Below the pieces are notes generated by a model. That model was given only the letters and a program-made list of their open reading frames with translations, was not told the origin of the DNA and did no database searches. A stretch of 64,000 bases of DNA from an uncultured Bacteriovoracaceae bacterium (GTDB lineage: Bacteria > Bdellovibrionota > UBA2428). This document shows, in pieces, positions 5,674 to 52,932 of the stretch (its first letter is position 1; each line of letters begins with the position of its first letter). Position numbers and translations under genes: made by a program. Location of the stretch: assembly GCA_937952285.1 (NCBI GenBank), contig CALFZE010000130.1, positions 18,282 to 82,281 on the forward strand, given 5' to 3'.

Positions 5674-7530
5674 GTGGCCTTCCAAGATTTGAAGCGCTTT
5701 ATCCTCGGTGAGGCCCTCTCCAATTCCCAAGCCGAGCACGAAAGGCTTCCCAAGTGGAAAGCCCTTCCCGTCTTCTCGAGCGACGCCATGAGCTCGGTGG
5801 CCTACGCGACCGAAGAGATCCTCATCATCCTCGCGGCGCTTTCGGCGGCCGCGGCCGTGTGGAGTCTGCCCATCGCGCTGACGATCGCGGCGCTGCTCCT
5901 GATCGTCTCGCTTTCGTACCGCCAGACGATCTCCCTCTACCCGCACGGGGGCGGCGCCTACACCGTCGCGCGCGAGAACCTGGGCGAAACGCCGGGGCTG
6001 CTGGCGGGCGCCGCGCTCATGATCGACTACATCCTGACCGTGGCGGTCTCGATCTCGGCCGGCGTCGCGGCCATCACGTCGGCGCTCCCGGAGTGCGCGC
6101 CTTACGCCGTCGCGATCGCGCTGGGGCTCATCCTGATCATGACGCTCTTGAACCTGCGCGGGGCGAGCGAGTCGGGACTCATCTTCTCGATCCCGACCTA
6201 TTTCTTCATCGCCTCCATCTTGATCCTGCTCATCGTCGGATTCTACCGGACCTGGCTGGGCGACTTGCCGCCGAAGGCCGGCATCGTCCACGAGGCGTAC
6301 CCGAAGATCGGCCTTTTTCTCGTGCTGCGGGCCTTCGCGAGCGGTTGCGCGGCGCTCACCGGCATCGAAGCCATCTCGAACGGCGTGCCCGCCTTCCGCG
6401 AACCGTCCGCGAAGAACGCCAAGACGACGCTCATGATCATGATCGCCGTGCTGGGCACTTTTTTCATGGGCGTGACCGCGCTCGCCCACCAGCACCTCAT
6501 CCTGCCGAGCGCGGCGGGCGGGGGCCACGGGGGCGGCGAGACCGTGCTGTCGCAGCTTGCCCGCACGGTCTTCGGCGACAGCATGGCCTACTACGCGATC
6601 CAAACCGCGACGGCGCTCATCCTCGTGATGGCGGCCAACACCGCCTTCGCCGATTTCCCGCGCCTCGCCTCGATCCTCGGCAAGGATCGGTACATGCCGC
6701 GCCAGCTGTCGAACATCGGCGATCGACTCGTTTTCTCGAACGGGATCACGGTGCTGGGCATCGCGGCCGCGCTGCTCATTTACCTCTTCGACGCCGATAC
6801 GCACGCGCTCATTCCGCTCTACTCGGTCGGCGTCTTCCTCTCTTTCACCCTCTCCCAAAGCGGCATGGTCGCGCATCACTTGCGGCACCGCGAACCGCAC
6901 TGGGTGAAGGGGCTCCTGCTCAACCTGGCCGGCGCGATCGCGACGGCGCTCGTGCTTTGCGTCGTCGCCGTGACGAAGTTCACCGAGGGCGCCTACATCA
7001 TCATCCTCGTCATCCCGGCCATGCTTCTGCTCTTCCGCGGCGTGAAGCGCCACTACGAAAGCGTGGGCCGCCAGCTCGCGCTGCCCAAGACCTGGACCCT
7101 CGACCACGTGACGCCTTCGATCGTCGTCGTGCCGATTTCGGGCTTCCACACGGGGGTGCTCAAGGCCCTCGAGTACGCGCGCGGGATCTCGAAGAACATC
7201 CACGTCTGCGTCGTCGACGTGGACGAGCGCGCGACGGCGAACGTGCGTCAGCAGTGGCGACAAAACCTGGGCGAGGAGAGCGCCTCGCCCCTGAAGCTCG
7301 TCGTGCTGGATGCGCCCTACCGTTCGGTCATCGATCCCGTCGTCGATTACCTGAACGAGCTCGAGCGCGGCAACCCGGGGCAGACGCTCACCGTCGTCAT
7401 CCCCGAGTTCGTGACCAAGCACTGGTGGCACGCCACGCTCCACAACCAGACGGCGTTCTTCCTCAAGACGCGACTACGCTACATCGAACGTCGCGTCGTC
7501 GTTTCGGTCAGCTACCACTTGCGGGAGTAG
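5674..7530 (+). CDS. APC-superfamily amino-acid/polyamine permease with a C-terminal cytoplasmic extension
   Basis: 618-aa ORF with about 12 predicted TM helices. The N-terminus (LGEALSNSQAEHERLPKWKALPVFSSDAMSSVAYATEEIL) is characteristic of the APC family. Confidence 0.8.
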   Translation: MAFQDLKRFILGEALSNSQAEHERLPKWKALPVFSSDAMSSVAYATEEILIILAALSAAAAVWSLPIALTIAALLLIVSLSYRQTISLYPHGGGAYTVARENLGETPGLLAGAALMIDYILTVAVSISAGVAAITSALPECAPYAVAIALGLILIMTLLNLRGASESGLIFSIPTYFFIASILILLIVGFYRTWLGDLPPKAGIVHEAYPKIGLFLVLRAFASGCAALTGIEAISNGVPAFREPSAKNAKTTLMIMIAVLGTFFMGVTALAHQHLILPSAAGGGHGGGETVLSQLARTVFGDSMAYYAIQTATALILVMAANTAFADFPRLASILGKDRYMPRQLSNIGDRLVFSNGITVLGIAAALLIYLFDADTHALIPLYSVGVFLSFTLSQSGMVAHHLRHREPHWVKGLLLNLAGAIATALVLCVVAVTKFTEGAYIIILVIPAMLLLFRGVKRHYESVGRQLALPKTWTLDHVTPSIVVVPISGFHTGVLKALEYARGISKNIHVCVVDVDERATANVRQQWRQNLGEESASPLKLVVLDAPYRSVIDPVVDYLNELERGNPGQTLTVVIPEFVTKHWWHATLHNQTAFFLKTRLRYIERRVVVSVSYHLRE

Positions 7531-9034
7531 TCGTGTGCGAGGGGAGCGGACGCTCCATTTCCTCGCCGATGAGCGCTTCGATGTCCGGCGGAACCTGGAC
7601 CTGGAGCCGGCGCCGGAGTTCACCGAATTCCATCGTGGCCCAATCCCGCGGCAAACGGATGCGGAAGCCTTCGGACGGGGCGCCCTCGCCGATCGGTCGC
7701 GCGCGGCAGACGGTATTGCGTTTTCCGATTTTGCGGATCGCCTCCGCGGCGGCGGGGCTCGCCGAGCCGCGGAATTCCGCCGACACCCCGGCGACCGGAG
7801 TCAGGAAGGAGTTGCCGCGCACGTCGACGCCCGCGGCCGCCCCCTCGCGCAAGAAGCACGCGCCCGGCGTCCCGTCGCAGGGCGGACGCGCGACGACGTT
7901 CCCCGTCATTTCGCTGTTCACGACGTCGCCGTAGGCCGTCAGGCCGGCGTAGCCGTTCTTGCGTCCGTCGGCCAAGCTCACGTTGTCGCGGACACGCACG
8001 CCGTCGACCGCTTCGCTGCCGTCGAAACTGCACAGCAGGACGCCCGCGCCGTCGTTGTCGAAGGTCAGGTTCCTTTCGACGACCGCGCGTTTCACGCTGC
8101 CGTCGACGTCGATCCCGCCGCCGTCCGACTTGGAGGCCGTTCGGTTCGCGAAGGAGACGTTGTCGTGGATCCACACGTCCTCGGCGTCCCAGGCCCAGAT
8201 ACCGATCGGCCCGCCGTTCGCTTCGTTGCGCTCGCCGTTGCGGAAGGCGACGTTGCCGGCGAGCTCCACGCGCGCGACGTTCGACACGACGATCCCGTGC
8301 CCGGAATGGTGGCGCTTGCCCGCCATGCCGAGGTTCGAGTGCGCGACGGAATCCCGGACGACGACGTCTTCGTGCCGGAAACTCGGCTTGGGCCAGTTGT
8401 CGCCCGCGACTTGCACCCCGGCCCAGTCGTTGCCGTGGGCGGCGACCCGCTCCAACGAGACCCGACGTAGACCGGGCGACTCCCAGCCGTTGCGTACGAG
8501 GATGCCGTTGCCGAAGGCGGCGACCTTGGGGCCCGCCTCGCCGGCGCGGTCGCCGCGAAAACCGGAGGCCTCGACGTCCCGCACGAGAAGATTCTCGGGC
8601 CTCGAAGCGGGGTCCTCGTTCGAAAGCACGAGTCCGTTCGACGGCGGCAGGTTTTCGCCCACGCGGTCGTCGACGAGCTTGAGTCCTTCGACGACGACGT
8701 GGCTTGCCCCGCGGATCTCGACCGTGCTGCCCCCCTCCTTCGGCACGCGGATAGAGGCCTTACGCCGCGAATCCGAGGCGAGGATCTTCACGGGCGCGGC
8801 GGGGGAACCCGGATCGCCGGCGTCCAGGCGCAGGGGACCTTCGTGCATGCGTCCGCTCTCGAGCAGGATGACGTCGCCCGGCTTGAACTGCCTTCCGTTG
8901 AGGGACGCGAGCGACGCCTCGACTTGGGAGCCGACGGGCGCGTTCTCCGGGCGTCCGACGTAGTAGGTCTTCGCGAACGACTCGCCTTCGCCCAGGGCGA
9001 GGGAAAGCAGCGCGAGCCCCGGAAGAAAACGCAT
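7508..9034 (-). CDS. Secreted right-handed parallel beta-helix (pectate-lyase-fold) repeat protein
   Basis: Signal peptide MRFLPGLALLSLALG. Contains repeated xNxxFxNN/GxGIxV beta-helix rungs. The 3' end overlaps the convergent permease by 23 nt. Confidence 0.65.
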   Translation of the reverse strand: MRFLPGLALLSLALGEGESFAKTYYVGRPENAPVGSQVEASLASLNGRQFKPGDVILLESGRMHEGPLRLDAGDPGSPAAPVKILASDSRRKASIRVPKEGGSTVEIRGASHVVVEGLKLVDDRVGENLPPSNGLVLSNEDPASRPENLLVRDVEASGFRGDRAGEAGPKVAAFGNGILVRNGWESPGLRRVSLERVAAHGNDWAGVQVAGDNWPKPSFRHEDVVVRDSVAHSNLGMAGKRHHSGHGIVVSNVARVELAGNVAFRNGERNEANGGPIGIWAWDAEDVWIHDNVSFANRTASKSDGGGIDVDGSVKRAVVERNLTFDNDGAGVLLCSFDGSEAVDGVRVRDNVSLADGRKNGYAGLTAYGDVVNSEMTGNVVARPPCDGTPGACFLREGAAAGVDVRGNSFLTPVAGVSAEFRGSASPAAAEAIRKIGKRNTVCRARPIGEGAPSEGFRIRLPRDWATMEFGELRRRLQVQVPPDIEALIGEEMERPLPSHTTTPASGS

Positions 9035-9075: not shown

Positions 9076-9552
9076 TCAAGCGAAGAGGCCGCGCAGCCGC
9101 TCGAGCCCTTCGCGGTCGGCCTCGCCGAAATCGTCGAGGCGCTCGCTGTCGACGTCGAGGACGAAGACGACCTCGCCCGTCGGCGCGAAGAAAGGCACGA
9201 CGATCTCCGAGCGCGACGCCGAGCTGCAGGCGATGTGGCCCGGAAACTTGTCGACGTCGGGCACGACGATCGTGCGGGCCTCGCTCCACGCCGCCCCGCA
9301 CACGCCGCGGCCCCGCGCGATCCGCGAACAAGCGAGCGGCCCCTGGAAGGGACCGAGCACGAGCTCATCGCCCACGACGCGGTAAAAGCCCACCCACAGG
9401 AAAGCGAAGCTCTCTTTGAGCGCCGCCGCGACGTTCGCCATCTTCGCGACGAGATCCGGCTCGTCCGCGACGACCGCGCGGATCTGCGGCCAGAGCTCGG
9501 CGTAGGTCTCGGCGCGCGAGAGTCCCGCGCGAAGGCTCAGCGACTCGCTCAC
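9076..9552 (-). CDS. GAF-domain free methionine-(R)-sulfoxide reductase (fRMsr/MsrC-like)
   Basis: 158 aa with the fRMsr-like GAF core (VDKFPGHIACSSASRSEIVVP). The ATG overlaps the cysK stop (4-nt ATGA). Confidence 0.75.
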   Translation of the reverse strand: MSESLSLRAGLSRAETYAELWPQIRAVVADEPDLVAKMANVAAALKESFAFLWVGFYRVVGDELVLGPFQGPLACSRIARGRGVCGAAWSEARTIVVPDVDKFPGHIACSSASRSEIVVPFFAPTGEVVFVLDVDSERLDDFGEADREGLERLRGLFA

Positions 9553-10553
9553 GTCGCGCCCAGCGGAATCGTCGCGAGGATCTTGTCGTCGACGGGCTGG
9601 GCCGTGAGCGATTGCGCTTTCTGGCGCTCCGCCTCGGCGAGCAGGGTCGAAAGGTAGCGTTCCGTGTAGCTCGGCAAGATCGCGACGATCGTCTTGCCCT
9701 TCATTTCGGGGCGACGGGCGAGCTCGCGCGCGGCGAAGAGGGCCGCGCCCGTCGAGATACCGGCGGGGAGACCTTCCGTGCGGAGGACTTCCTTCGCCGT
9801 GGCGAGGGCCTGCTCGGAACTGACCGAGAGAACGCCGTCCACGACCGAGCGATCGAAGTTCTTCGGCACGAAGCCCGCGCCGATGCCTTGGATCTTATGC
9901 GGTGCGGGCTTGCCGCCCGCGAGCACGGGGGATTCCGTCGGCTCGACCGCCCAGACCTGAATCCCCGCCCGCCGCGCCTTGAAGACGCGGCCGCAGCCCG
10001 TGATCGTGCCGCCCGTGCCGACGCCCGCGACGAAGGCGTCGAAGTCGCCGCCCGTCTCGTTCCAGATCTCCTCGGCCGTCGTGCGCACGTGCACCTCGGG
10101 GTTCGAGGCGTTCTCGAACTGCGAAGGCTGGAAGGCCGATGCGTCGGCGCGCGCGATCTCGAGGGACTTGGCGATGGCCCCGCGCATGCCGAGCGGCCCC
10201 GGCGTCAGCACGAGCTCCGCGCCGAGGAGCAGCAGCAGCGTGCGCCGCTCGAGGCTCGCCGTCTCGGGCATCGTGAGCGTGAGGCGATAGCCCTTGGCCG
10301 CGCACACGAAAGCGAGCGCGATCCCCGTGTTGCCGCTCGTCGGCTCAACGACGTGGGCGCCGGGCTTGAGACGCCCCGCCCGTTCCGCGTCTTCGATCAT
10401 CGCGAGGCCGATGCGGTCCTTGACCGAACCGAGGGGGTTGAAGAACTCGGCCTTGCCGAGGATCGTCGCGCCCGTGTCGCGCCCGAAGTGCTGAAAGCGA
10501 ACGAGGGGAGTCTTGCCGATGAGACCGAGGATCGTCGGGATTTCCGTCTTCAT
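9549..10553 (-). CDS. cysK: Cysteine synthase A (O-acetylserine sulfhydrylase, PLP-dependent)
   Basis: 334 aa with the PLP lysine motif (GSVKDR), the SGNTG loop, a GxGTGGT glycine-rich loop, and a typical CysK N-terminus (GKTPLVRF). Confidence 0.9.
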   Translation of the reverse strand: MKTEIPTILGLIGKTPLVRFQHFGRDTGATILGKAEFFNPLGSVKDRIGLAMIEDAERAGRLKPGAHVVEPTSGNTGIALAFVCAAKGYRLTLTMPETASLERRTLLLLLGAELVLTPGPLGMRGAIAKSLEIARADASAFQPSQFENASNPEVHVRTTAEEIWNETGGDFDAFVAGVGTGGTITGCGRVFKARRAGIQVWAVEPTESPVLAGGKPAPHKIQGIGAGFVPKNFDRSVVDGVLSVSSEQALATAKEVLRTEGLPAGISTGAALFAARELARRPEMKGKTIVAILPSYTERYLSTLLAEAERQKAQSLTAQPVDDKILATIPLGAT

Positions 10554-10600: not shown

Positions 10601-12667
10601 TCAATCTTCCGTGGCCTTCCAAGTTTCGAGCGCCTTAAGGGCGTGCTCGCGGCAAAGCGCGATCTCCTGGTCCGTGATGAGTCCGTTGTGGCCCCGGATC
10701 GCGGCGAGCTTCGCCCCGTGTTTCTTGGCGATGTCGTAGATCTCGATGACCTTGCGGTGGTTGATGTTCTTCGACAGCGTGAAGGATTCGAAGCGTCCGT
10801 CGAGGGCGAGCAAGGCCGTCTCGGCCAGGCAGGCGTAGACGGCGTCGTCGGGCGTGCCGATGTCGCAGTCCAGCTTGACGTCGCCGGGCAACTCGATTTC
10901 GCCCGACTCCACGACGAGCACGTCGGGCCGCTTGACGGCGTCCTCCTCGCTCACGTCGAGGGGTCGACTGACGTCGCAGATCACGCAACCCGGTTTCACC
11001 GCCATGATGTCGAGGACCTTCTTGTCGTAGGAGCTCGTCGAAGTCACGATGAGGTCGCAGCTGCGGGCCGCGGCGTTGGGGCTCGTGACGAGCGTGACTT
11101 TGCAGCGGGGGACGAGCTCCTGGATCTCGGAACGGATTTCGAGCAGCTTGTCCGCGCGGCGCCCCACGAGCACGAGCTCCTCGAAGACGTAGGCGAGGAC
11201 CTTGGCGCAAGCGCCGCCGATCGAGCCCGTCGCGCCGATGATCATCGCCTTGCCGCGCACCTTCGACCCGAGCTTGAACGACGGCAGGAAGCCGAGCTTC
11301 GCGCAGGCGTCGCGCGCCGCCCACAGCGTGGCGGAGGCCGAGAGACTGTTGCCCGTCGTGAGCGGGATCGGGCTGCGCTTGGCCACGGTGATGCCGCCGT
11401 CGCCCACGATCTTGGTGTAGGCGCCGAGGCCGATGATGTCGGCGCCGCGCTCGGAGGCCTTCACGCAGACCTTCGTGAGCACGTCGTACATCTTCTCGGG
11501 CGCTTCCTTCATCATGACCCGCGGCGTCTGGTAGACGATGAAAAAATCACCTTCGACTTCCTGGCCCGTCGCCTCGCTCCGCACGCCCGTGATCTTGCCG
11601 TAGAAACCCGGCGGGATCTTGCCCATGGCCGTCTCGATCTCGGACCCGAAGTTCTCGGCCATCCCCTTGAACGGCTTCAGGAAGGGAATACGGAAGAGCT
11701 GGCGGTAGCTGAGCGGGTGGATGACGAAGGCAAAGCGGCGCGCCTGCGGCTTCGCGGCGCCGTCGATCGCGATCTGGGGCTTGAGCCCGAAGCGGTCCAC
11801 GAACTCGAGGATGTCGTCTTCGCGCAAGGGTTCCCGTTCGGGTTTGAGGCACTGCAGGAGCCCTTCGATGATTCCGAACGAGAAGCGTTCCTGATCGCCT
11901 TCCATCGGGAGGCGCGGGGCGAAACTCACGACGCGCTGGACGCCGGCCTCGTGCAGCCCCTTGAGCACCCCGGGCGTGACGTAGTCGACGAGCAGGGTCT
12001 TGCCCTTGAGGTGATCGAAGCGGAAGCGCTCGAGGAGCGTCATCCGCGTCACGAAGATGTCGCACTTCTCGAAGTCGCCCAGGCCGATCCCGAGCAGGCT
12101 CTTGCGGGTGTGCCGCGGACGGATGTGGCGACCCAGGGGGATGAAGCGCGCGAAGGGCGTGACCCGGCGCAGATAGCTCTCGAGGCCGGGCAAGCTACGG
12201 ATCTCGGTCTTCGCGCCGACGTGCAGGTAGGGATCCAGGAAGACCATGCGCTCGGTCTGCTCGGAGAGCATTTGGGCGAGCCCCATCTCTAGCGCGCCCG
12301 AGTAGAAGCCGATGCGCTTCTTGCGGAAGAAAGCGGGGTCCTTGCGGATGAGCTCGCGCACCGCCCAGGGCAAGTAGGCCGAACGCAGGAGATCTCCCGT
12401 CACGACGATCGAGTGCCGCACGGAATCGAGGAGCGCCTGGGACTCGGGGTGGATCATGCGGCGCGACCCGATGCGCGTGCCGTGCTGGATGCCCTGCAAG
12501 CCGATGACGTCGGCCTTGCCGTCGAACTCGGCGATGAGGCTCCGCATGACGTCGATGTCGAAGTCGCAGCCGAAGTGGCTGACGTGGATGGATTCCCCCT
12601 CGAGCTTGACGTCGGCCTCGAAGTTCGAGGCGCTCGAAGTGAAGGAGATGTTCACGAGGCGTTTCAT
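10601..12667 (-). CDS. Two-domain protein: N-terminal ~340-aa uncharacterised domain fused to a C-terminal acyl-ACP-reductase (AAR)-like NAD(P)-binding domain
   Basis: The last 688 codons of the 1130-aa track ORF; the ATG at 12667-12665 was verified. The C-terminal domain aligns block by block with cyanobacterial AAR (TTGNSLSASATLWAARDAC, IIGATGSIGGACAKVL, CVICDVSRP, ACLAETALLALDGRF). The N-terminal half has no match I recognise. Confidence 0.7.
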   Translation of the reverse strand: MKRLVNISFTSSASNFEADVKLEGESIHVSHFGCDFDIDVMRSLIAEFDGKADVIGLQGIQHGTRIGSRRMIHPESQALLDSVRHSIVVTGDLLRSAYLPWAVRELIRKDPAFFRKKRIGFYSGALEMGLAQMLSEQTERMVFLDPYLHVGAKTEIRSLPGLESYLRRVTPFARFIPLGRHIRPRHTRKSLLGIGLGDFEKCDIFVTRMTLLERFRFDHLKGKTLLVDYVTPGVLKGLHEAGVQRVVSFAPRLPMEGDQERFSFGIIEGLLQCLKPEREPLREDDILEFVDRFGLKPQIAIDGAAKPQARRFAFVIHPLSYRQLFRIPFLKPFKGMAENFGSEIETAMGKIPPGFYGKITGVRSEATGQEVEGDFFIVYQTPRVMMKEAPEKMYDVLTKVCVKASERGADIIGLGAYTKIVGDGGITVAKRSPIPLTTGNSLSASATLWAARDACAKLGFLPSFKLGSKVRGKAMIIGATGSIGGACAKVLAYVFEELVLVGRRADKLLEIRSEIQELVPRCKVTLVTSPNAAARSCDLIVTSTSSYDKKVLDIMAVKPGCVICDVSRPLDVSEEDAVKRPDVLVVESGEIELPGDVKLDCDIGTPDDAVYACLAETALLALDGRFESFTLSKNINHRKVIEIYDIAKKHGAKLAAIRGHNGLITDQEIALCREHALKALETWKATED

Positions 12668-13725
12668 GCGCCACCCCCGGCGATCGTATCGAACTCGTCG
12701 CTTCTCACGAAACGATAGAAAGCTTCGGCGTAGTCGCCGAAAAGCGGAAGGGAAAGGTCGGGATAGTCCTCGCGCAGCGAGTGGTTCGCGAACTGCGCCT
12801 CGGAGTAGAGGTAGTGCTGGAGCGAAGCGGGGATGCCCAGGCGAGGCAGGAGCGCCGGCGGCACGACGCCGCGAGGGAGCGGCACGAGACGCGTGCGGTG
12901 CCCCAGCTCCTGGAAGGAACGCTCCAAGAACTCCGCCATCGGAAAGGCGGGACCGGAAAGGTGGTAGGTCCGCCAACGCCCTTCGAAGAAGGCCGGCTGC
13001 CGGGCGATGCGGGCAAGGACCGCGGCCACGGCGTCCACCGGCACGATGTGCAGGGGCGCCCCCGGATGGAAGGGCAGAGGCGTACGGCCGAAAACGGAGA
13101 GCGCGCGCCAAAGCGGCGCGTGGCGCTTCAGGCTCCGCAGCAAGTAGTAGGGTCCGTCGATCTTGTCGGTGCGGCCCGTGGCGGCGTCGCCGACCAGGAT
13201 GCCCAACCGGCAGACGTACTTGCGGACCTCGGTCTTCCAGGCGCCGACGAGGCCTTCGACGCGGAACTTCGTCGAGGCGTAGGGATTCGGGAAACCCTGC
13301 CCCACGTTGAACATGTTCTCGTGGAAGATCCCCCGGAAGTCCCCCGCCACGGCGATCGTGCTCGTCGACACGAAAGTCTCGAGCGAGGTGAGGCGATCGC
13401 AAAGGCCCAAGAGATTCTGCGTGCCCACGACGTTGTGGAGGTAGTTCTGCGAAGCGCCGATGCGCAGGTCGTAGCTGGCCGCCATGTGCAGGACGCCGCG
13501 AACCTCGGAGGCGAGCTCGTCGATGTGGTCCCGCTCGGTCAGCACGCCGAAGTCGCGCAGGTCGCCCGCGAGCAGCCGCACGTCCTTGCGATCGCCGTAG
13601 AGACGGCGCGCCTGCGCCATCGAGGCCGGGCGAACGACGAGGTAAAGGAGCCCCGGGTAACCTTCGAGGGATTCGAGGACGCGACGGCCCAGGAAGCCGC
13701 TCGCGCCGGTGATCAAGAGACTCAT
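12664..13725 (-). CDS. NAD-dependent reductase of the thioester-reductase / fatty-acyl-reductase (NAD_binding_4, extended SDR) type
   Basis: Starts MSLLITGASGFLGRRVLE (TGxxGFLG) and carries the YASTK catalytic dyad. A GGGGAAG RBS lies upstream. Its stop overlaps the downstream ATG as ATGA. Confidence 0.8.
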   Translation of the reverse strand: MSLLITGASGFLGRRVLESLEGYPGLLYLVVRPASMAQARRLYGDRKDVRLLAGDLRDFGVLTERDHIDELASEVRGVLHMAASYDLRIGASQNYLHNVVGTQNLLGLCDRLTSLETFVSTSTIAVAGDFRGIFHENMFNVGQGFPNPYASTKFRVEGLVGAWKTEVRKYVCRLGILVGDAATGRTDKIDGPYYLLRSLKRHAPLWRALSVFGRTPLPFHPGAPLHIVPVDAVAAVLARIARQPAFFEGRWRTYHLSGPAFPMAEFLERSFQELGHRTRLVPLPRGVVPPALLPRLGIPASLQHYLYSEAQFANHSLREDYPDLSLPLFGDYAEAFYRFVRSDEFDTIAGGGA

Positions 13726-14651
13726 AGTGCTTCCCCCAAAGGACTGAAGAGGCGGAGGCCTTTCGGCATGATCTCGATGTCGAAGCTCGAAGCTTCGCAA
13801 AGGAACTCGCCGTCGCCGAAGAACGGCAAGGTCTGGCCGTCGAGCACGTCGATGCGCACCCGGCGCGCTTCCGCCGTGAAGAACTCGGGATCGTTGCGCG
13901 GGTCGCGTCCGCGGCGGATGTCGAGGAGCCCCTTGAGGAATCCCAGGCGGTGGCGATGCCCGAAGCCTGCCACGTTGAAGGTTCCGTCGTCATTGCGCGT
14001 GCTCGGCGCGATCGCGAAGTTTCCGCCCAGCACGGGCTGGTTGTTGATCATGAGGATGGGCGTGCGGATCTCCGAGACGACGCCGTCGACGTCGATCCGG
14101 AACGGAATGCCCCGGCCGCCCGGGCCGAGCAGCTTAAGCACGACGCCCGCGGAATAGATGTTCGGGCCGGTCAGCTTCATGAAACGCTTGAAAAGGGGGG
14201 CCTGCGCGCGCCACTCGTTCACCTGGAGCGCGACCGAGGCGCCGAGCCCCAACCCGCCGTTCGTCGCCATGTAACGGCCGTTGATGCGGATAAGGTCGAT
14301 GCAACGCTCGTTGGAACGGCGCACGGCCTCGACGGCCCGCTCGATGCGACGGTCCAAGCCGATCTCGCGGGCGAGGTCGTTGGCCGTGCCGGCCGGCACG
14401 AGCAGCAAGGCAACGTTGGATCCCGCGAGGTCTTGGATGAGCGTGTTCGCCGTCCCGTCGCCACCGACCGCGACGATGGCGTCCACGCGGTCGCTCACGG
14501 CGCGCAGCAGCTCCTCGTGCAGGCGATCGAGCCCGTCCGGCGAAACGAATTCGAGCTCGCTGCGGAAGAGCTTACGCTTGAGCCCTTCCACGAGTTCGAC
14601 GCTTTCGCCCGACGAGGCGCGCGGATTCAGGAAAATTCTAATCTTCTGCAT
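13722..14651 (-). CDS. Lipid kinase of the diacylglycerol-kinase catalytic-domain family (YegS/DgkB-like)
   Basis: 309 aa with the AIVAVGGDGTANTL motif and a YegS-type C-terminal domain. Its stop overlaps the SDR ATG (ATGA). Confidence 0.8.
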   Translation of the reverse strand: MQKIRIFLNPRASSGESVELVEGLKRKLFRSELEFVSPDGLDRLHEELLRAVSDRVDAIVAVGGDGTANTLIQDLAGSNVALLLVPAGTANDLAREIGLDRRIERAVEAVRRSNERCIDLIRINGRYMATNGGLGLGASVALQVNEWRAQAPLFKRFMKLTGPNIYSAGVVLKLLGPGGRGIPFRIDVDGVVSEIRTPILMINNQPVLGGNFAIAPSTRNDDGTFNVAGFGHRHRLGFLKGLLDIRRGRDPRNDPEFFTAEARRVRIDVLDGQTLPFFGDGEFLCEASSFDIEIMPKGLRLFSPLGEAL

Positions 14652-14755: not shown

Positions 14756-15150
14756 CTACTTCGGGGCGCGCAAACGCAGGCTCAGATTGATCGCGAGCTT
14801 CCGCAGGATCTGGATGTGGGCCTCGGGGTTGCGTCCCACGAAGTCGTTCATACGGGCGTGGGGGATCAGGAGGACCTTGGCATCATTGCCCGCCACGGTC
14901 GTCGCGCTGGCCGGCTGTCCGTCGAGCCACGACATCTCGCCCAGCATGTCGCCCGATTGGAGGCGAAAACCCGAGGGCTGAACGACGACCTCGCCCTCCA
15001 TCACGATGCAGATGGCGTCGTTGCGACGCCCTGCCTCGGTGAGGTGCGTTCCCGTCGGGAGCTTGGCGATCGAGGAAAGCGAAAGCAGCTCCGTGCTCTC
15101 GTCCGGCGTCAGTTCGTTCAGGAGCCAAGTCTGCAGCAGCAACTGTCTCA
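14756..15150 (-). CDS. Stand-alone cyclic-nucleotide-binding (cNMP) domain protein
   Basis: The C-terminal 131 codons of the track ORF form a CAP-effector-like beta-roll (IVMEGEVVV...GDMLGEMSWLDGQPASATTVAGNDAKVLLI). A GTG at 15150 is preceded by GGAAGGGGGA. The upstream part of the track ORF looks like antisense junk. Confidence 0.5.
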
Positions 15151-15244
15151 CGGTGTCATATCCCCCTTCCCAGGATAATCGAATCGTCCCGACTGCGATA
15201 CGGGTCGCTGGCGTCCGGAGCGGAAGGGACGCATACTTAGAGCC

Positions 15245-16051
15245 ATGAAAACGCACCGCCTGCCCGTTTTGGCCCTCTTCGCGCTCACCCTGAACGGCCC
15301 GGCCTTGGCGCAGAAGGCGCCGAGCGCCGACGAGATCATGCAGAAGAGCGAAAGCGCGCGCCGCATTCCGCAGCTCAAGGCGGAGGGTCTCCTCGCCACG
15401 AGCGGCGACGGTGCCCCTTCCGACAAGACCTTCCTGTTCTCCCGCAAGCTGACCTCGGACGGCACGCGTTTCCGCACGCTCACCCGTTTCAAGACGCCGG
15501 CCACGGTCCGCGACCAGGCCATCCTCTTCCTCGAACGCGACAGCGACTCGAGCGACATCTTCATGTACCTGCCCAACTTCAAGAAGACCCGCCGGGTCGA
15601 GTCCCACGCCCAGAGCGGAAGCTTCATGGGCACGGCCTTCAGCTATTCCGACATCGCGAATCCCCACGCCGAGGACTACACGCACAAGCTGCTCAAGTCC
15701 GAGAAGTGCCCCGGCGGCGCGAACAACTGCTTCGTCGTCGAGTCGACCCCCCGCACCGCGGGCGTGAAGGAACGCACCGGCTACTCGAAGTCCGTCCAGT
15801 GGATCGATTCCGTGAGCTACCTTCCCGTCAAGGGCGAGTTCTACGACGCCAAGACCCAGAAGCTCCGCAAGCAGATGGTGTCGAGCGACATCCAAGCCGT
15901 CGGCGCGAAGAAGGCCCACTACCTCGCCCACCGCTCCGAGATCACGGATCTCACGAACGGCCGCAAGAGCCGCCTCGTGTTCTCGAAAGTCAACGTCGAC
16001 GAGAATCTCCGCGATAACCTCTTCACCCAGGCCGCCCTCGAGTCGCCCTGA
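15245..16051 (+). CDS. Periplasmic LolA-like protein (outer-membrane lipoprotein-sorting-protein family)
   Basis: Signal peptide followed by a 268-aa domain with the layout of LolA-like proteins. It is paralogous to the ORF at 40888-41670. Confidence 0.65.
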   Translation: MKTHRLPVLALFALTLNGPALAQKAPSADEIMQKSESARRIPQLKAEGLLATSGDGAPSDKTFLFSRKLTSDGTRFRTLTRFKTPATVRDQAILFLERDSDSSDIFMYLPNFKKTRRVESHAQSGSFMGTAFSYSDIANPHAEDYTHKLLKSEKCPGGANNCFVVESTPRTAGVKERTGYSKSVQWIDSVSYLPVKGEFYDAKTQKLRKQMVSSDIQAVGAKKAHYLAHRSEITDLTNGRKSRLVFSKVNVDENLRDNLFTQAALESP

Positions 16052-16071
16052 GCGGATCCGCGAAGCGTCCG

Positions 16072-17358
16072 ATGCCGAAGCACGCCCCGTCTCGACGCCT
16101 CGCCCTCCTCGGCCTGGCGTGCGGCCTGGGCGTCGGCGCGCACGCGGCCGAGGTCGCGGGGCGCCTGCTCAGCGCGACCCACTTCGCCGTCGACCCCGGC
16201 GCGCGACGGCCGCTTCTGCAGAACACGCAGCTGGGCTTTCTGCGCGTCCGCGAGAGTTTCGACGAAGGCCCGCGCTTCGAGGGGAGCGTGCGGCTCGTCG
16301 CGGAACCCCGCGGGCTCGACGCCACCGGCAAGACCTTCGAAGCGGACTTTCACGAATTCTACCTCAACCTCCGGCGCGGCGACTGGGATGTTTCGCTCGG
16401 ACGGCGCATCCGCAGCTGGGGCATCGCGGACGGCGTGAACCCGACGCGTTTCTTCGGCGCGAAGGACCACACGCTTCTCCTGTCGAACGAAACCGACAAG
16501 GAGCTCCCGCTCACCCAGCTCATCGTGAACTGGACGCCCGACGGCGGCGCTTGGACTTGGGGCCTCGTTTTCCTGCCGACCTTCGTGCCCGACAAATTCT
16601 ACGTCCCGCCGGAGAGCCTGCCGACGGGCGTCGCCTTCAACGACACCGCTCAGTTTCGCGGCGAGGGATGGGGCGGCGGCGGCGGGCTGCGCCTCGCGTA
16701 CGTCGGCGACGGTTTCGACTTCGCGCTCGTCGGCTTCGCCGGCTTCGACCCGCGTCCCGAGTACGAAGTCCGCGTCGTGAAGGTCCTGCCCGAGCTCGTG
16801 ACGCTTTACCGCAAGCAGGTCGGCGCCGGTCTCGAGGCCTCGACCTCGACGGGCCCCTGGATCTTCCGCCTGGAGGGATCCTTCCGCCACTTCGTTTCGG
16901 AGTGGGATCGCGATCCCTACCTCCTACAACGGACCGAAGGCGTCGTGGGAGTCGAACGCTCGCTCGGCGACAGCTGGCGGATCAACGCGCAGGCGATCGG
17001 CCACCACTCCTCGACCTCGATCGCTTCGGGGAGCTTTCCCCTGACGGCCGAGACCGCCGGGCTCTACGCGGTCGTCCGACTGAACGAGCGGGTCTACCGT
17101 TCGCGAAGGTCGGCGGAAGCCGGCGCGACCTTCCGTCTCGCCTACGATTCCGAAACGAATCCCTTCACGGCGGAAGTTTTCGGCGTGACCTACTTCGCCG
17201 ACCTGGACTGGCTCGGACGAGGCGCTTTGGGATGGAAAGCGCGCGACGGACTCAAGCTAAGTCTCGGCGTCGACTACTACTCGGGGGACGACGAGACGCT
17301 CTTCGGCAGCCTCCACGACCTCTCGGCCGCTTGGTTCGAAGCCGCTTTCGACTTTTAG
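16072..17358 (+). CDS. Outer-membrane beta-barrel protein (partner of the LolA-like protein; DUF1302-like)
   Basis: Signal peptide, amphipathic beta-strands and a C-terminal Phe. The motif GRRIRSWGIADGVNPTRFF is shared with its paralog at 41673-42944. Confidence 0.6.
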   Translation: MPKHAPSRRLALLGLACGLGVGAHAAEVAGRLLSATHFAVDPGARRPLLQNTQLGFLRVRESFDEGPRFEGSVRLVAEPRGLDATGKTFEADFHEFYLNLRRGDWDVSLGRRIRSWGIADGVNPTRFFGAKDHTLLLSNETDKELPLTQLIVNWTPDGGAWTWGLVFLPTFVPDKFYVPPESLPTGVAFNDTAQFRGEGWGGGGGLRLAYVGDGFDFALVGFAGFDPRPEYEVRVVKVLPELVTLYRKQVGAGLEASTSTGPWIFRLEGSFRHFVSEWDRDPYLLQRTEGVVGVERSLGDSWRINAQAIGHHSSTSIASGSFPLTAETAGLYAVVRLNERVYRSRRSAEAGATFRLAYDSETNPFTAEVFGVTYFADLDWLGRGALGWKARDGLKLSLGVDYYSGDDETLFGSLHDLSAAWFEAAFDF

Positions 17359-17374: not shown

Positions 17375-18232
17375 ATGATCCAAATCCACGAGTTCGTCGG
17401 CGAAGAGAGCGGAACGCACCTGCTTATCTTGGGCGGGATCCACGGCAACGAAGTCTGCGGGCCCCGCGCGCTGAGCAAACTCGTCGACGAACTTCGGGGC
17501 GGAAAGCGCACGCTCGCGAAGGGACGCCTGACCATCGTTCCCGTCTGCAACCCCCGGGCCCACGCCGCCAACGTGCGCTTCATCGAAGAGAACCTGAACC
17601 GCGTGTTCGAGCCGAGCGACGCGCCGAAGTCCTACGAACGCCGTCTCGCCCAAAGCCTCGCGCCGCTCGTGGCCCGCTGCGACGCGCTGCTCGACCTGCA
17701 CAGCATGCAATCCAAGGGCGAAGCGTTTTCCGTGCTGAACCAGGATCGGCCGGGCTCGGCGTCGCTTTGCCGCGCGCTGGGCACGCGCTGGATGCTTTCG
17801 GGATGGCCCGAGGTCTACCGCGACCACGCCGACAAGGACAGCTGCTGCACGCAGAGTCTGGCCGACCGCCACGACAAAGCGAGCGCGCTCATCGAATGCG
17901 GACAGCACGGCAGCGTCGAAGCCGATCGCGTCGCCGAAATCGCGATCGAGCGCGCCCTCGCGCATTTCGGCCTGGGCGGGCTTGCGGCGGGTCACGTCGC
18001 GAACCTCGAGCCCCGGCGCGTTCATTTGCGCTCCGTGCATTTCCGCGAATCCGACGGCGACCGGCTCCTGAAGGACTTCGAGAACTTCGAAAGCCTGCGC
18101 CAAGGCGATCCCATCGTAAAGCGCGCCGATGGCCGCGTGGAGCACGCCCCCGAAGACGGGGTCATCGTTTTTCCGAGCCCCCATTCGGCGATCGGCACGG
18201 AGCTCTATTACCTTGGCAAGCTCCAAGGATAG
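17375..18232 (+). CDS. Succinylglutamate desuccinylase / aspartoacylase family (M14-like Zn hydrolase)
   Basis: 285 aa with the LILGGIHGNEVCG zinc-ligand motif typical of the AstE/AspA family. Confidence 0.75.
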   Translation: MIQIHEFVGEESGTHLLILGGIHGNEVCGPRALSKLVDELRGGKRTLAKGRLTIVPVCNPRAHAANVRFIEENLNRVFEPSDAPKSYERRLAQSLAPLVARCDALLDLHSMQSKGEAFSVLNQDRPGSASLCRALGTRWMLSGWPEVYRDHADKDSCCTQSLADRHDKASALIECGQHGSVEADRVAEIAIERALAHFGLGGLAAGHVANLEPRRVHLRSVHFRESDGDRLLKDFENFESLRQGDPIVKRADGRVEHAPEDGVIVFPSPHSAIGTELYYLGKLQG

Positions 18233-18327: not shown

Positions 18328-19386
18328 ATGGAACGTTTTCAACGTCGCCTCCGCCGCTCCCCTTCAATTCTCCTCTTGAGCTTCGTCGCCGGCCTCTCGG
18401 CCTGCGGCAAAGCGACCACGGGCGCCGAGCCCGAGGGCGTCGTCGATAACACGACCCCCCTCGGCACGACGCCCCTTCCCTCGAGTGCCCTCTCCCTCGA
18501 CGTCATCGCCGCGAGCGGGGCGGAATGTCCGGCGGGCGGTTCGGTCCTCGTGCGTTTCGTCGACGCGAACGGCAACGCGACGCTCGACGCGAACGAGAAC
18601 GTCGTCTCGCGTCTGCCGATCTGCAACGGCGCGCGCGGCACGGACGGCGGCGAGGGCATCGCCTCGGGGCTGCTCTTCGAGAACGCGACGAGCGCGAGCT
18701 GCGCTTACGGCGGCTCGAAGCTGACCGCCTTCGCGGACCGCAACGGCAACGGCCAACGGGAGATCGGCGAGGAAATCCGCTCCGAGACGACGATCTGCAA
18801 CGGCCGCGACGGCGCGGACGGTCGCGACGGCGAAGCGGCGAGCTTGAGCGTGGCGCCCGCGAGCGCGGCCCAGTGCCCGGGCGGCGGCGCCGTGTACACG
18901 AGCGTCTCCGCGTCGAGCTCGGCGCAGACGACCGTGGTTTGCAACGGCCAAGACGGTCGCGACGGCCGAAACGGACAGGATGGATCAAACGGGCAAGACG
19001 GAACGAACGGCCGCGACGGATCGAATGGCCGTGACGGCGTGGATGGCCGCGACGCGACCTACGCCATGGGCGCCGTCGGCTCGATCGTGAAGGGACGCGA
19101 CTACTCCGCCTGCCACCACGACTACCTCTACCTGCCGAATCGCGAGGAAGGCGCGCGCGGGTGGCTGCTCTTCCGTCACCAGGCCAACGGCGCGAACGAC
19201 CAGGGCGTCGGTCCGACCGGCTTCCAGGTGTGGAACGTCGACATCGGCGACTTCGCCCTCGTGTCCGAGGTCGGCGGCGTGACCTACTGCCGACTGCGCT
19301 GGCACGCCGAGAAACGGCTCCTCGAGTACGAAGTCGTCGACCGGAGCAACGGGCTAGCGGGCGAGACGGGCCAGATCTCCTTCTGA
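18328..19386 (+). CDS. Lipoprotein with three Cys-bounded modules and collagen-like Gly-X-Y repeats
   Basis: Lipobox LSAC. Three modules run C(P/A)xGG...CNG, each followed by a G-x-x run (CNGQDGRDGRNGQDGSNGQDGTNGRDGSNGRDGVDGRD). Confidence 0.7.
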   Translation: MERFQRRLRRSPSILLLSFVAGLSACGKATTGAEPEGVVDNTTPLGTTPLPSSALSLDVIAASGAECPAGGSVLVRFVDANGNATLDANENVVSRLPICNGARGTDGGEGIASGLLFENATSASCAYGGSKLTAFADRNGNGQREIGEEIRSETTICNGRDGADGRDGEAASLSVAPASAAQCPGGGAVYTSVSASSSAQTTVVCNGQDGRDGRNGQDGSNGQDGTNGRDGSNGRDGVDGRDATYAMGAVGSIVKGRDYSACHHDYLYLPNREEGARGWLLFRHQANGANDQGVGPTGFQVWNVDIGDFALVSEVGGVTYCRLRWHAEKRLLEYEVVDRSNGLAGETGQISF

Positions 19387-19467: not shown

Positions 19468-21306
19468 CTACTGGAGGTCGTCGACGACCGTCGCGGAAGG
19501 TTGCAGCAGTTCGGCCGGGTAGACTTCGGGTTCCGCCGCGGCGGCGACCTTACGGCCGGCCGAGCTCGTCTTGACGGCGCCCGTATTCACGCCGAGCATC
19601 TCGTCGCCGACGCTCAGCCCGACCGGGATCGCCCGGCCCGTGTAGAGACCGTAGGCGTCGAGGTAGGCCAGGTACTCGTTGATGAGCGTCTGATGCTTGG
19701 AGCTCGCGACGACGGGCGCGTCGATGCGCACCGACTTCTGGAACATCCCGTAGGCCGGGCTTCCCCACTTCTTGATCTCTTCGTCAGCCGCCGCGAGGCC
19801 CGCCGGCGTTTGCGGCGCCATCGCGCGGAAGGTCACCTCGTCGCCCGGCGCGCGGTAGACGAAGCGGCCTTGGCAGCCCGACCAGCCACACTCGAGGGGG
19901 TTGCCCTTGAAGGGGCTATATCCCGAGGGGCGTTTCTCTTCGGCCGCTTCGAGGGTGCGGATGCACTCGGCGTAGCGCGCATCGCGGTTGTCGTTCGGGC
20001 ACAGGAAGTCGAGCACGCGAATCTTGTAAGCGCGAAAGTCGTTGTTGGGCACCCACTCGGCGCGTCCGCCCCCGGTGGCGACGGGCTTCCAAAGCGGCTC
20101 CGGCGAGGTCCAGCTCATGGCCAAGTGGCCCATGCCCCGGTAGCAACGGGTCATGTCGGGATCCGTCTGCACCTTCACGTTCACGATGTAAGTCTCGACG
20201 CGACGGCGCTCCCAGGGGAAGCGAGGCTCGATGACGCGACGCTGTTCGCGCGGCTCCATCTTGAAACCCGGCGCGAAGTCGCAGAAGGCTTTGAAGAAGC
20301 CCAAGCCGCCGCCCCGGTACTGGGGTTTGCGCTTGGTCGGGTCCGGGTTCAGGTCGAGCGGGTCCTTCTCGGGCGAGGGACCGTAGTTCCCCCAAACCCC
20401 GGAGTACGGAAAGTTATTCGGCTTCATGCGCAAGCAGCCGCGCGAGCAGTCGTAGGTGTCGCCCTGCGAGAAAGCCGTCGTGGACGGCGCCCAGGGATAA
20501 GAGGCGAAGGGCTTGGCTTGGCCCTCGGCGAGCGGCGGGTTCGGATAGCCGTAGCCGGTCATGTAGAAGCGGCCGTCGGCGTGCAGTCGCTCGAAGTCGG
20601 TGAAGCTGAGCGAGCCGAGGACGGGGATGCCCCACGCCCGCGACAGCAGCGGCGCCAAGGTGAAGCCGGAGTTGCAGCCCCAGAGGGCGGCGAAGGCGTT
20701 CGGGCTGAAACGCGGAGCGAGCGCCGCGATGCCGGGATGGAGGGCGCGCACGTCCGGATTGCCCGTGGCGTACATGTTCGCGATCGGCTGCGCGAGCGGA
20801 AAGCGGAAGTTCCAGTCCTTCGTTCCCATCGCCGCGCCCGAGGGCCAGCTCGCGTGCGAAAAGACCTCGAAGCCTTCGATCGAGCCGAACTGCGAAGCGA
20901 TCGCGGCCATCTCGGCGGATCCGAGGGTTCCACGGGGCTGCGACACGACGTGCAGACGCGCGCCCTTGATCCACGCGGTCTCGCGGTCGCCGGCCTTGAC
21001 GCCCTTCGCGATGAGCGGCTTGCGCAGGACTTCGTCGATGTTCTCGATGGGCTCCATCGGCACGTAGGCCAGGACCTGACGCTCGGGGAACTGCGACGAG
21101 AGCACGCTCAGGCGCGTCGCGACGGCGTCGAAGAGCGCCTTGCCCAATTCGTTGGGCGCGCCCATGAAAAGAAGGTGCGCGGGGAGCCGCGAGTTCACCG
21201 GGCGATCCGGCGTGGCCGAAAGCACGTAGTAATCCGCCCGCGACGCCGACGTGACCGAGACCAAGGCGCAGCCGAGCAACGCGCGCGTGAAGAATTTTTT
21301 CTGCAT
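19468..21306 (-). CDS. Secreted hypothetical protein (612 aa)
   Basis: Long ORF with a signal peptide (MQKKFFTRALLGCALVSVTSASRA) and globular composition. No family recognised. Confidence 0.65.
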   Translation of the reverse strand: MQKKFFTRALLGCALVSVTSASRADYYVLSATPDRPVNSRLPAHLLFMGAPNELGKALFDAVATRLSVLSSQFPERQVLAYVPMEPIENIDEVLRKPLIAKGVKAGDRETAWIKGARLHVVSQPRGTLGSAEMAAIASQFGSIEGFEVFSHASWPSGAAMGTKDWNFRFPLAQPIANMYATGNPDVRALHPGIAALAPRFSPNAFAALWGCNSGFTLAPLLSRAWGIPVLGSLSFTDFERLHADGRFYMTGYGYPNPPLAEGQAKPFASYPWAPSTTAFSQGDTYDCSRGCLRMKPNNFPYSGVWGNYGPSPEKDPLDLNPDPTKRKPQYRGGGLGFFKAFCDFAPGFKMEPREQRRVIEPRFPWERRRVETYIVNVKVQTDPDMTRCYRGMGHLAMSWTSPEPLWKPVATGGGRAEWVPNNDFRAYKIRVLDFLCPNDNRDARYAECIRTLEAAEEKRPSGYSPFKGNPLECGWSGCQGRFVYRAPGDEVTFRAMAPQTPAGLAAADEEIKKWGSPAYGMFQKSVRIDAPVVASSKHQTLINEYLAYLDAYGLYTGRAIPVGLSVGDEMLGVNTGAVKTSSAGRKVAAAAEPEVYPAELLQPSATVVDDLQ

Positions 21307-34832: not shown

Positions 34833-35088
34833 GCCTTTTTAGCGCGAGATTTTTCGCGTTAAACGCCCCGAAGATCTCCGAGGCCCCGCTTTCCGACGAA
34901 AACGGTTTTTCGTTCGCGATCCGCGCCCCACGCCGAATACGCGGCGGCACAATCCAAACCCGCGCACGAATAGCGGCCCACGCCTCGACCTACGCAAAAC
35001 GCCGTCAAGCGCGCACGAAAAAATAGTTTCCGTTGAGACGATGCGAGAGATCCGCTCCGCCGCGCTTCGGCCCGAGGGATAGGGCGCC

Positions 35089-36557: not shown

Positions 36558-36677
36558 AATGGGGCATCGCGCCACGGCGAATTCCGTTTAGGCGCCTTTC
36601 GACTGAGCCCGGAAAAAGTGAGCGTCGCGCTTCGCGCGCCGGGTGCGCCCCCACCTTTTGGGCTATCCTCGGGCGCC

Positions 36678-37382: not shown

Positions 37383-37393
37383 GGGAGCCTGGG

Positions 37394-39487: not shown

Positions 39488-39497
39488 GGAATCCGAA

Positions 39498-40856: not shown

Positions 40857-40887
40857 ACGCGGGCGCGACCCGCAGGAAGGACCGAAC

Positions 40888-41670: not shown

Positions 41671-41672
41671 GG

Positions 41673-42944: not shown

Positions 42945-42955
42945 AAGGAGCGTTC

Positions 42956-51246: not shown

Positions 51247-51634
51247 GCTCGTTCGGCTCGCGAAGGACGAAGCCCTCGCGGCCGGCGTCGTCGGGCACGA
51301 AGGATCCCGGCTCCGGGTGCTCTTCTCGGAGCTTCGTCGCTGGCATTCCCCGACGGAGTGGATCGTCTTCTACCGGCACGCGGGCACCTACTACTACCCA
51401 CTCGCCTTCGAATTCCGCTCGGTGAACAACAACCTGCTGCACTTGGTCCTGGAACTCGGGATCCGGGACTTCGACGTCTTGGCGAGCTTCGTACAGGATT
51501 CCCTGCAGAGGCACGAGCGCCTCGAAACCGTCGTGCGCGCGCTCGTCGTGGAGATGCCGTCGGAGCCCCCCTATGCGGTGCCGCTCCGAGACTTCTCCAT
51601 TTCCGAGGCGCTCCGCGATCTCGTCTACTTGTGA
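51227..51634 (+). CDS. Hypothetical protein (135 aa)
   Basis: Overlaps the upstream ORF by 20 nt; same strand. Confidence 0.4.
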   Translation: MSRDLFELVRLAKDEALAAGVVGHEGSRLRVLFSELRRWHSPTEWIVFYRHAGTYYYPLAFEFRSVNNNLLHLVLELGIRDFDVLASFVQDSLQRHERLETVVRALVVEMPSEPPYAVPLRDFSISEALRDLVYL

Positions 51635-52929: not shown

Positions 52930-52932
52930 TCC

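Follow-up and report, generated by a model that had tools for sequence, protein, structure and literature searches.

A LolA-fold carrier and a porin-like barrel beside a lipid kinase/reductase cassette: a pump-less form of a probable envelope export module in a Bacteriovoracaceae bacterium

Results

A LolA-fold carrier and an outer-membrane barrel lie head-to-head with a lipid cassette

The DNA analyzed here, referred to as the window, is a 64,000-nucleotide stretch from an uncultured Bacteriovoracaceae bacterium (contig CALFZE010000130.1, positions 18,282–82,281). Our subject is a pair of plus-strand genes within it, one for a periplasmic LolA-like carrier (15245–16051, 268 aa) and one for an outer-membrane beta-barrel (16072–17358, 428 aa). 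Across a short divergent gap, the pair faces a tightly packed minus-strand series that begins with a small gene for a cyclic-nucleotide-binding (cNMP) domain (14756–15151) and continues with a lipid kinase and two reductases. Long spurious open reading frames (ORFs) are common at the 66% G+C of the window; therefore, genes were chosen by codon-position GC. The G+C content at third codon positions (GC3) was 0.86 for the cNMP-domain gene, 0.92 for the carrier gene, and 0.86 for the barrel gene, and the identical sequence, with identical gene calls, is present in public assemblies (a bioreactor-sludge metagenome and the metagenome-assembled genome [MAG] GCA_002343545.1). On these grounds, the LolA-like, barrel, and cNMP-domain genes reported in an initial annotation of this DNA are all real and lie where it had placed them.

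The carrier matched PF17131 (LolA_like, TP_0789-like) over profile positions 4–183 of 184, with 167.9 bits against a cut-off of 30 (E 2.4e-49), and DUF1329 as a secondary family (31.7 bits, E 1.3e-7). Pfam reported no other family at E ≤0.01, canonical LolA included. A profile of the carrier family (alignment A3) recovered solved members of the LolA superfamily: 3BK5 (E 3.5e-30), 9TP6 (7e-29), 4Z48 (2e-27), and 3BUU (4e-6). The N terminus, MKTHRLPVLALFALTLNGPALA/QK (…PALA/QK), reads as a Sec signal peptide with no lipobox cysteine, which predicts an exported, soluble periplasmic protein. The downstream partner is a barrel rather than a LolB-type lipoprotein, which places the carrier outside the canonical Lol pathway.

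The barrel had no Pfam or NCBIfam match of its own, and none in Pfam even at E 10. It begins with a Sec-type signal peptide (AHA/AE) and ends in …AAFDF, with a C-terminal phenylalanine that is invariant in its relatives (alignment A1). A GRxIxxWG…NPTD motif is conserved among these relatives, and in the family alignment (A4) the fifth strand is followed by a loop, W-G…D…P-T-D, that hardly varies. An AlphaFold2 model based on a 58-sequence alignment was all-beta (pLDDT 90.6, pTM 0.87); an earlier run on four sequences (pLDDT 54) was set aside in its favor. All of the top 50 PDB matches of the model in Foldseek were outer-membrane porins, and the best were the 16- to 18-strand porins OccD2, MOMP, OccK, AlgE, and chitoporin (E ~1e-9, TM 0.5–0.6). 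The model and its fold matches predict with high confidence that the 428-aa protein is a porin-like outer-membrane beta-barrel of approximately 18–20 strands, cognate to the carrier.

A word-indexed search had returned only three to four relatives of the barrel, which made the protein look like an orphan. This impression was refuted by an exhaustive HMMER search with the family profile, which gave 4422 cluster representatives at E ≤0.001 and 273 at E ≤1e-30; the apparent rarity was a search artifact because the word-indexed search had missed almost all of them. The A4 profile found no solved relative by sequence. Weak DUF1302 matches were obtained for 31 of the 58 aligned relatives (best 5.5e-9). 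The window barrel does not reach the curated cut-off of DUF1302 (PF06980), and its relatives range from sub-threshold to weak, but it does have the fold, signal peptide, and C-terminal aromatic residue of a DUF1302-type outer-membrane barrel. The sequences indicate an uncurated family, for which neither Pfam nor NCBIfam has a model, that is a remote relative of DUF1302 rather than a member of it.

The carrier and barrel usually follow an inner-membrane pump

Carrier and barrel form a near-obligate gene couple across many phyla. The carrier alignment was used to scan one genome per species, which produced 77 loci with 10-kb flanks; alignment A2, which includes the second paralogue described below, was too diverse for this purpose. 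A barrel-family ORF was present in 73 of the 77 LolA_like loci, and in 66 loci clustering placed it after the carrier gene on the same strand. Of the four loci with no barrel match, three end at a contig edge.

The 21 closest loci (38–56% identity) come from Myxococcales and Bdellovibrionota MAGs, and in 15 of these an ABC ATPase and a fused MacB_PCD/FtsX permease are encoded directly upstream of the pair. The metagenomic homologues P0002 and P0003 have the same ABC arrangement upstream. At 45 more distant loci (Spirochaetota, KSB1, Cloacimonadota, Aminicenantes, Bacteroidota, and others), a TetR gene and an MMPL/RND pump take that place. Neither form is found at the window pair: the ABC ATPase and permease are not upstream of 15245, and no MMPL or BNR gene was found within 19 kb, so the four-gene arrangement of the AmeABCD type (discussed below) is also absent. 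Because the couple follows an inner-membrane pump in its relatives, we read the window pair as the outer half of a three-part system, with the pump missing locally. Pump-less pairs also occur elsewhere, at L019 and L020 (behind a LysR regulator) and at L021 (Mpo1-like–LolA_like–barrel).

A complete second module is encoded on the plus strand of the window at 36618–42944. It consists of a 254-aa ABC ATPase, two separate FtsX permeases of 697 and 452 aa, a 260-aa LolA_like protein, and a 423-aa barrel; Pfam recognized ABC_tran, FtsX, MacB_PCD, and LolA_like (E 1e-39), and the barrel hidden Markov model matched 41667–42941. A 214-aa protein with no Pfam match adjoins the module (stretch 36618–43600, plus strand). 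The second module is only ~25% identical to the first pair, and it is a candidate energizing partner for that pair or simply a paralogous system. The presence of two carrier-barrel modules within 64 kb suggests that the family is multi-copy in this genome.

The lipid cassette is recurrently joined to another subfamily of the module

The cassette opposite the pair is a trio of minus-strand genes. The first (13722–14651) encodes a DAGK/YegS-type lipid kinase with DAGK_cat and YegS_C domains (NCBIfam lipid kinase E 1e-30, below the equivalog cut-off), and the second (12664–13725) encodes a fatty-acyl reductase-like short-chain dehydrogenase/reductase (SDR) of the NAD_binding_4 family (PF07993, E 2e-25; PRK07201-like). 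The third (10601–12667) encodes a 688-aa protein, the C-terminal half of which resembles acyl-acyl carrier protein (ACP)/thioester reductases (AAR, PigE N-domain); its matches to NCBIfam PigE (E 1e-47, residues 311–677) and AcACP_reductase (E 2e-15) are both below the equivalog cut-offs. The 688-aa protein has 968 homologues, mostly in Bdellovibrionota-type MAGs. Residues 1 to approximately 310 have no Pfam or NCBIfam match, yet more than 900 homologues share them over their full length.

A metagenome scan with the 688-aa protein produced 80 cassette loci, for which 835 kb of flanking sequence was surveyed. The trio is strongly conserved, with the kinase in 47/80 loci and the SDR in 50/80, and most of the remainder are truncated contigs. 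Clustering of the flanking ORFs revealed that the trio usually sits within a larger lipid cluster. DUF3419, a BtaA-like family, is encoded immediately downstream in 46 loci; the other members are a formyl-transferase-like gene, an AMP-binding–UbiA fusion (the AMP-binding part of which is an acyl-AMP ligase), a UbiA gene, and a PPDK_N/PEP-utilizer gene, sometimes together with GNAT, P450, or WS/DGAT genes. Examples of the extended cluster are L084 (7873–21895), L089 (8008–22063), L097 (1071–17018), and L113 (6878–20919). We speculate that the extended cluster phosphorylates a fatty alcohol, which is then used by UbiA-type transferases.

At seven of the 80 cassette loci, profile searches detected LolA_like or barrel ORFs, in each case directly contiguous with the end of the extended cluster. 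At L084 and L089, ABC-FtsX-LolA_like genes come after the PPDK-like gene on the same strand. An ABC-FtsX-LolA_like-barrel set follows DUF3419 at L097 and is divergent from the kinase gene at L096. L135 and L143 have the order DAGK-AARlike-DUF3419-LolA_like-barrel with no pump and with housekeeping genes on the flanks, and at L113 a barrel ORF is convergent on DUF3419. A further three loci (L098, L105, and L142) show the ABC ATPase only, at the edge of the cluster, where the retrieved sequence stops; if these ABC-only edges are counted, then the module is contiguous with the cassette in up to ten loci (7–10/80). All seven ABC254-like matches in the surveyed flanks adjoin the cluster, and none is located elsewhere. 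Many of the flanks stop inside the extended cluster. Fully assessable loci, defined as those with at least 1.5 kb visible beyond the cluster on both sides, number 21, and the module is adjacent in six of these (29%). By a rough estimate, random placement of one such module in a 4-Mb genome would lead to ~0.2 occurrences in the surveyed flanks, compared with the seven found.

The cassette-linked LolA-like proteins constitute one subfamily (48–68% mutual identity), whereas the accompanying reductases are only 34–55% identical (80% for L135 versus L143) and the gene order varies. Since the reductases have diverged while the LolA-like subfamily is shared, the proximity of cassette and module has been maintained despite deep divergence and rearrangement. 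Evidently, the lipid cassette tends to recruit a LolA_like-barrel export module, and in the window that position is held by another subfamily.

Isolated weak lipid-gene matches were also seen at two distant MMPL-type LolA_like loci, L035 (1050–1982) and L043 (12254–13120), from Flavobacteriaceae and KSB1 MAGs. These are an acyl-ACP-reductase-like gene and a DAGK-like gene, 4–5 kb from the carrier.

The cNMP-domain gene is not part of the conserved cassette

The initial annotation described the pair as divergent, across a 95-bp gap, from a cNMP-domain gene that heads the lipid operon. The divergence is correct, but the gap read from the sequence is 93 nt (15152–15244). The cNMP-domain gene heads the operon by position only: a spacer of 104 nt separates it from the lipid-kinase gene, which follows on the same strand. 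Its start is a GTG at 15151, preceded by a GGGGGA ribosome-binding site. The 93-nt region yielded no sigma-70-like promoter, terminator, or inverted repeat, and scans of two intergenic regions for these elements gave nothing usable.

The 131-aa product is a stand-alone cNMP-binding-domain protein (PF00027, 46.5 bits against a cut-off of 27.5) with a single domain at residues 30–107 and, according to Pfam, no helix-turn-helix, kinase, or channel to serve as an output domain. In CRP, Arg82 is the residue that holds the cyclic phosphate. A BLASTP alignment to Escherichia coli CRP set GEMSWLD-GQPAS opposite GELGLFEEGQERS; the phosphate-binding cassette of the window protein keeps the glutamate (CRP E72) and has alanine in place of Arg82.

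A cNMP-domain gene was found beside none of the 80 other cassettes and is absent from 20 of the 21 related pairs. Such genes are rare in the ~2.3 Mb of flanks examined, where they occurred only at L021 and L075. At L021 (9014–12134), a canonical cNMP_binding gene (168-aa ORF, arginine present) is divergent from the Mpo1-like–LolA_like–barrel operon; Mpo1-like proteins belong to the 2-hydroxy fatty acid dioxygenase family, which once more puts a lipid enzyme beside such a pair. This is a second example of a cNMP-domain gene facing a pump-less pair, but with two cases and barely similar proteins we treat it as a lead only. A 127-aa ORF divergent from the pair at L019 was considered as a further cNMP-domain gene and rejected because its translation is arginine-rich and non-genic; the true upstream gene at L019 encodes the LysR regulator. 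The proposal that the system is under cyclic-nucleotide control was not supported, given the lack of the gene at other cassettes, the alanine at the Arg82 position, and the missing output domain. The gene is better described as a lineage-specific neighbor, for which a regulatory role is unsupported.

Flanking genes and other features of the window

An AstE/AspA-family deacylase with no signal peptide (17375–18232, plus strand, 285 aa; PF24827, E 6e-23) starts 16 nt past the barrel stop codon and is, because of this short distance, probably co-transcribed with the pair. No homologue was found beside the pair in the 77 related loci. On the minus strand, the series continues beyond the trio with genes at 9549–10553, 9076–9552, and 7508–9034, where Pfam and NCBIfam identified cysK, a GAF protein, and a beta-helix protein. 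The cysK, GAF, and AstE-like genes were left out of the proposed system because they are conserved with neither the pair nor the cassette. Scanning the window for Rfam families and tRNA genes gave no match.

Several features elsewhere in the window are recorded here in their own right. The gene at 18328–19386 (plus strand) encodes a predicted lipoprotein with an LSAC lipobox, DUF7151 repeats, and a collagen-like GxDGxNGxDG tract, and that at 19468–21306 (minus strand) encodes a predicted 612-aa lipoprotein with an LLGC lipobox and no family match. At 33861–35973 (minus strand), between the ABC module and the CNNM/HAD genes, a DUF222/HNH endonuclease gene of unusually low GC3 (0.70) adjoins a GIY-YIG nuclease-domain gene; this may represent a mobile or selfish element. 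The region 51625–56494 (minus strand) contains genes for an AcrB-type RND pump (1041 aa, E 3e-273) and a TolC-like OEP protein (423 aa) with a 138-aa gene between them; the genes upstream (56522–57358 and 57810–58631) have no Pfam match, and no recognizable membrane-fusion protein was found there. At the end of the window (62001–64000), G+C falls from ~0.65 to 0.52, and the ORFs present (166 and 253 aa, both with signal-like N termini) look compositionally foreign.

Discussion

The carrier-barrel pair is a pump-less, cassette-adjacent form of a known but experimentally neglected envelope export module, and its assignment to that module is very likely to be correct. We propose that the pair would act as the periplasm-to-outer-membrane half of a Lol-like, three-compartment route for hydrophobic cargo. 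An inner-membrane pump would extract the cargo, the LolA-fold carrier would take it through the periplasm with its acyl or alkyl chains shielded, and the dedicated porin-like barrel would receive it and insert or expose it at the outer membrane. A route of this kind is probable because of the fold, the obligate pairing of the two genes, the linkage of relatives to exporter-type pumps, and the precedent of AmeABCD. The window couple would have been separated from its pump and now lies head-to-head with the lipid kinase and two-reductase cassette, where it may be a non-orthologous replacement of the usual module, with the energizing pump encoded elsewhere (for example, at 36618–40856). The direction of transport is inferred, and a pump-less pair could in principle act passively. 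Because the cassette is repeatedly joined to another subfamily of the same module, its lipid is the most likely single candidate for the cargo, but this identification is tentative and we put it slightly on the doubtful side. Taken as a whole, the proposal is the best explanation of the locus that we have and is, on balance, somewhat favored. The general idea in the initial annotation, that a LolA-fold carrier and a barrel move hydrophobic cargo to the outer membrane, therefore appears to be right; its more specific claim, that the pair exports the product of the adjacent biosynthetic operon, is plausible and has indirect comparative support, but the synteny of orthologues argues against it.

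Several observations weigh against the cassette-linked export proposal. None of the 77 loci, the 21 close ones included, has the lipid trio within 10 kb of the pair, and the nearest relatives of the pair (L006 and L007, 55–56% identity) are ABC-linked. No inner-membrane pump was found by Pfam within 19 kb of the window pair, and none of the extended-cluster genes (DUF3419, UbiA, PPDK-like, and so on) is present in the window. Approximately 70% of the fully assessable cassette loci have no adjacent module, and each of the two LolA_like proteins of the window shares only 22–26% identity with the cassette-linked subfamily. Conservation of the synteny of pair and operon had been named in advance as the observation on which the model would stand or fall, and the outcome was divided: it failed for all 21 orthologous pairs and was found at 7–10 of the 80 cassette loci, with the other subfamily in place of the window pair. 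The adjacency could be coincidental, and there is a substantial, though lesser, chance that the pair is a displaced copy of the ABC-coupled module that serves a MacB-type ABC transporter elsewhere (36618–40856 or outside the window) and carries an unrelated cargo. The cassette-free context of all 21 closest relatives, 15 of them with ABC-FtsX genes directly upstream, fits this explanation, as do the complete ABC module 19 kb away, the membership of the cassette-linked modules in another subfamily, and the unconserved cysK, GAF, and AstE flanks. However, direct adjacency to the cassette recurs in several deep lineages and in varied arrangements, which is hard to account for without a functional tie, and pump-less pairs are located inside lipid operons at L135/L143 and L021.

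The remaining explanations concern what the pair does rather than where it lies. Uptake or outer-membrane turnover of hydrophobic compounds would have no need of an ATP-driven pump, so that the absence of a transporter would be accounted for; the pump-less pairs at L019–L021 agree with such a role, and DUF1302/DUF1329 genes of Pseudomonas putida are required for growth on fatty esters (10.1101/2020.07.04.188060). We regard uptake as unlikely because the pumps linked to the couple are always of the exporter or extractor type (MacB-type ABC or MMPL/HAE3 RND) and because the data for AmeABCD favor export (PMC6394551). It is also improbable, to a slightly greater degree, that the carrier is an alternative LolA that sorts lipoproteins, with the barrel as an insertase in place of LolB. 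The LolA-superfamily fold is consistent with that role, and a similar one was proposed for the Borrelia BBJ23–29 cluster (PMC13078400), but the carrier has no canonical LolA match at E < 0.01 and its recurrent neighbors are lipid-synthesis rather than lipoprotein genes. Furthermore, LolA3 of Porphyromonas gingivalis does not bind LolB and is without the LolA arginine (PMC13103446), and deletion of lolA3 in Flavobacterium johnsoniae had no lipoprotein-related phenotype (PMC11885536). The full model of the initial annotation, in which a cyclic-nucleotide sensor jointly governs the lipid operon and the export pair through the 93-nt region that they share, is the explanation that we consider very improbable indeed. 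The divergent layout agrees with it, and the pump-less pair of L021 likewise faces a small cNMP-domain gene of a kind that is rare; these points are set against the absence of the gene from the 80 other cassettes and from 20 of the 21 related pairs, the arginine-to-alanine change, the lack of a DNA-binding or other output domain, and the failure to find an operator-like repeat.

The export module has several partial counterparts. The closest relative with experimental data is the DUF1302-DUF1329-BNR-RND cluster, known as AmeABCD in Castellaniella defragrans, where its deletion makes cells less tolerant of monoterpenes and increases their accumulation of Nile Red (PMC6394551), and from cofitness in Shewanella and Pseudomonas (10.1101/072470). 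AmeABCD likewise has a barrel in the outer membrane (DUF1302), a LolA-superfamily protein in the periplasm (DUF1329), and a pump of the exporter type for hydrophobic compounds; the window carrier matches DUF1329, and about half of the relatives of the barrel match DUF1302. The window proteins are, however, smaller (268 and 428 aa compared with 451 and 605 aa) and in reverse order, with the carrier first. The window barrel itself reaches no DUF1302 score, no BNR/COG4447 gene was seen near the pair, and the pump of its close relatives is a MacB-type ABC transporter rather than RND, with no pump at all in the window. The AupA/AupB proteins of Marinobacter were considered as another DUF1302/DUF1329 pair and dropped from the comparison, since AupA is described as FadL-like and neither family is named in the paper. 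A MacB-like ABC transporter, a LolA-like protein, and an outer-membrane barrel also come together in BBJ23–BBJ29 of Borrelia burgdorferi, an exporter of a non-polar ligand proposed from computation only (PMC13078400), but that barrel is Omp85/BamA-like rather than porin-like, there are two chaperone-like proteins, and the cluster is plasmid-borne.

Comparison with the Lol pathway itself is also informative. In the complete relatives of the pair, a MacB-type ABC extractor, a LolA-fold carrier, and an outer-membrane acceptor succeed one another as in LolCDE-LolA-LolB. The window carrier is nevertheless a PF17131 protein, the acceptor is an integral beta-barrel rather than the lipoprotein LolB, and the cargo, judged by the neighboring genes, is more likely to be a lipid than a lipoprotein. 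P. gingivalis LolA3 (PDB: 9TP6) is a solved member of the carrier's sequence family (profile E 7e-29); it does not pair with LolB, is without the LolA/LolB signature residues, and has no assigned function (PMC13103446). No barrel partner or lipid context was described for LolA3 of P. gingivalis or F. johnsoniae, and the obligate barrel and pump context is what the present analysis adds. LolA2/LolB2 of the F. johnsoniae flexirubin locus provide a case in which a carrier is hypothetically dedicated to the lipid product of the adjacent cluster (PMC11885536). This pathway-dedicated carrier is the same idea as that of the initial annotation and is still a hypothesis there too; the proteins belong to other LolA/LolB families, and the acceptor is a lipoprotein instead of a barrel. 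In the open-access literature that we searched, neither the obligate PF17131-barrel couple, nor its ABC-linked form, nor a connection of the couple to the lipid cluster was described.

The transport of lipids other than lipopolysaccharide and lipoproteins to the Gram-negative outer membrane is largely an open question. The PF17131 "lipoprotein-sorting" proteins, LolA3 included, are almost always encoded with a specific barrel, and the pair in turn is accompanied by an exporter-type pump, which turns them into components of a testable three-part route; the recurrent joining of this route to a conserved lipid cluster provides a candidate cargo and a tractable genetic test. The extended cluster may be more novel than the carrier-barrel finding itself. 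A broader hypothesis, which we offer as rather unlikely at present, is that Bdellovibrionota-type bacteria make an undescribed envelope lipid with the extended cluster, its two reductases being of the acyl-thioester/aldehyde type and its PPDK-like enzyme a phosphotransferase, and send it to the outer membrane by a dedicated Lol-like route, for lipids instead of lipoproteins, that is made up of an ABC extractor, a LolA_like carrier, and a porin-like barrel, and that in the window a non-orthologous pair has replaced this module. If so, the cassette would need such a route, and carrier-barrel pairs would be interchangeable units of cargo delivery. Should the link between pair and cassette fail, the window pair would be another displaced member of a common, uncharacterized module; if the link holds, it would represent a pathway-dedicated, Lol-like system for lipid export.

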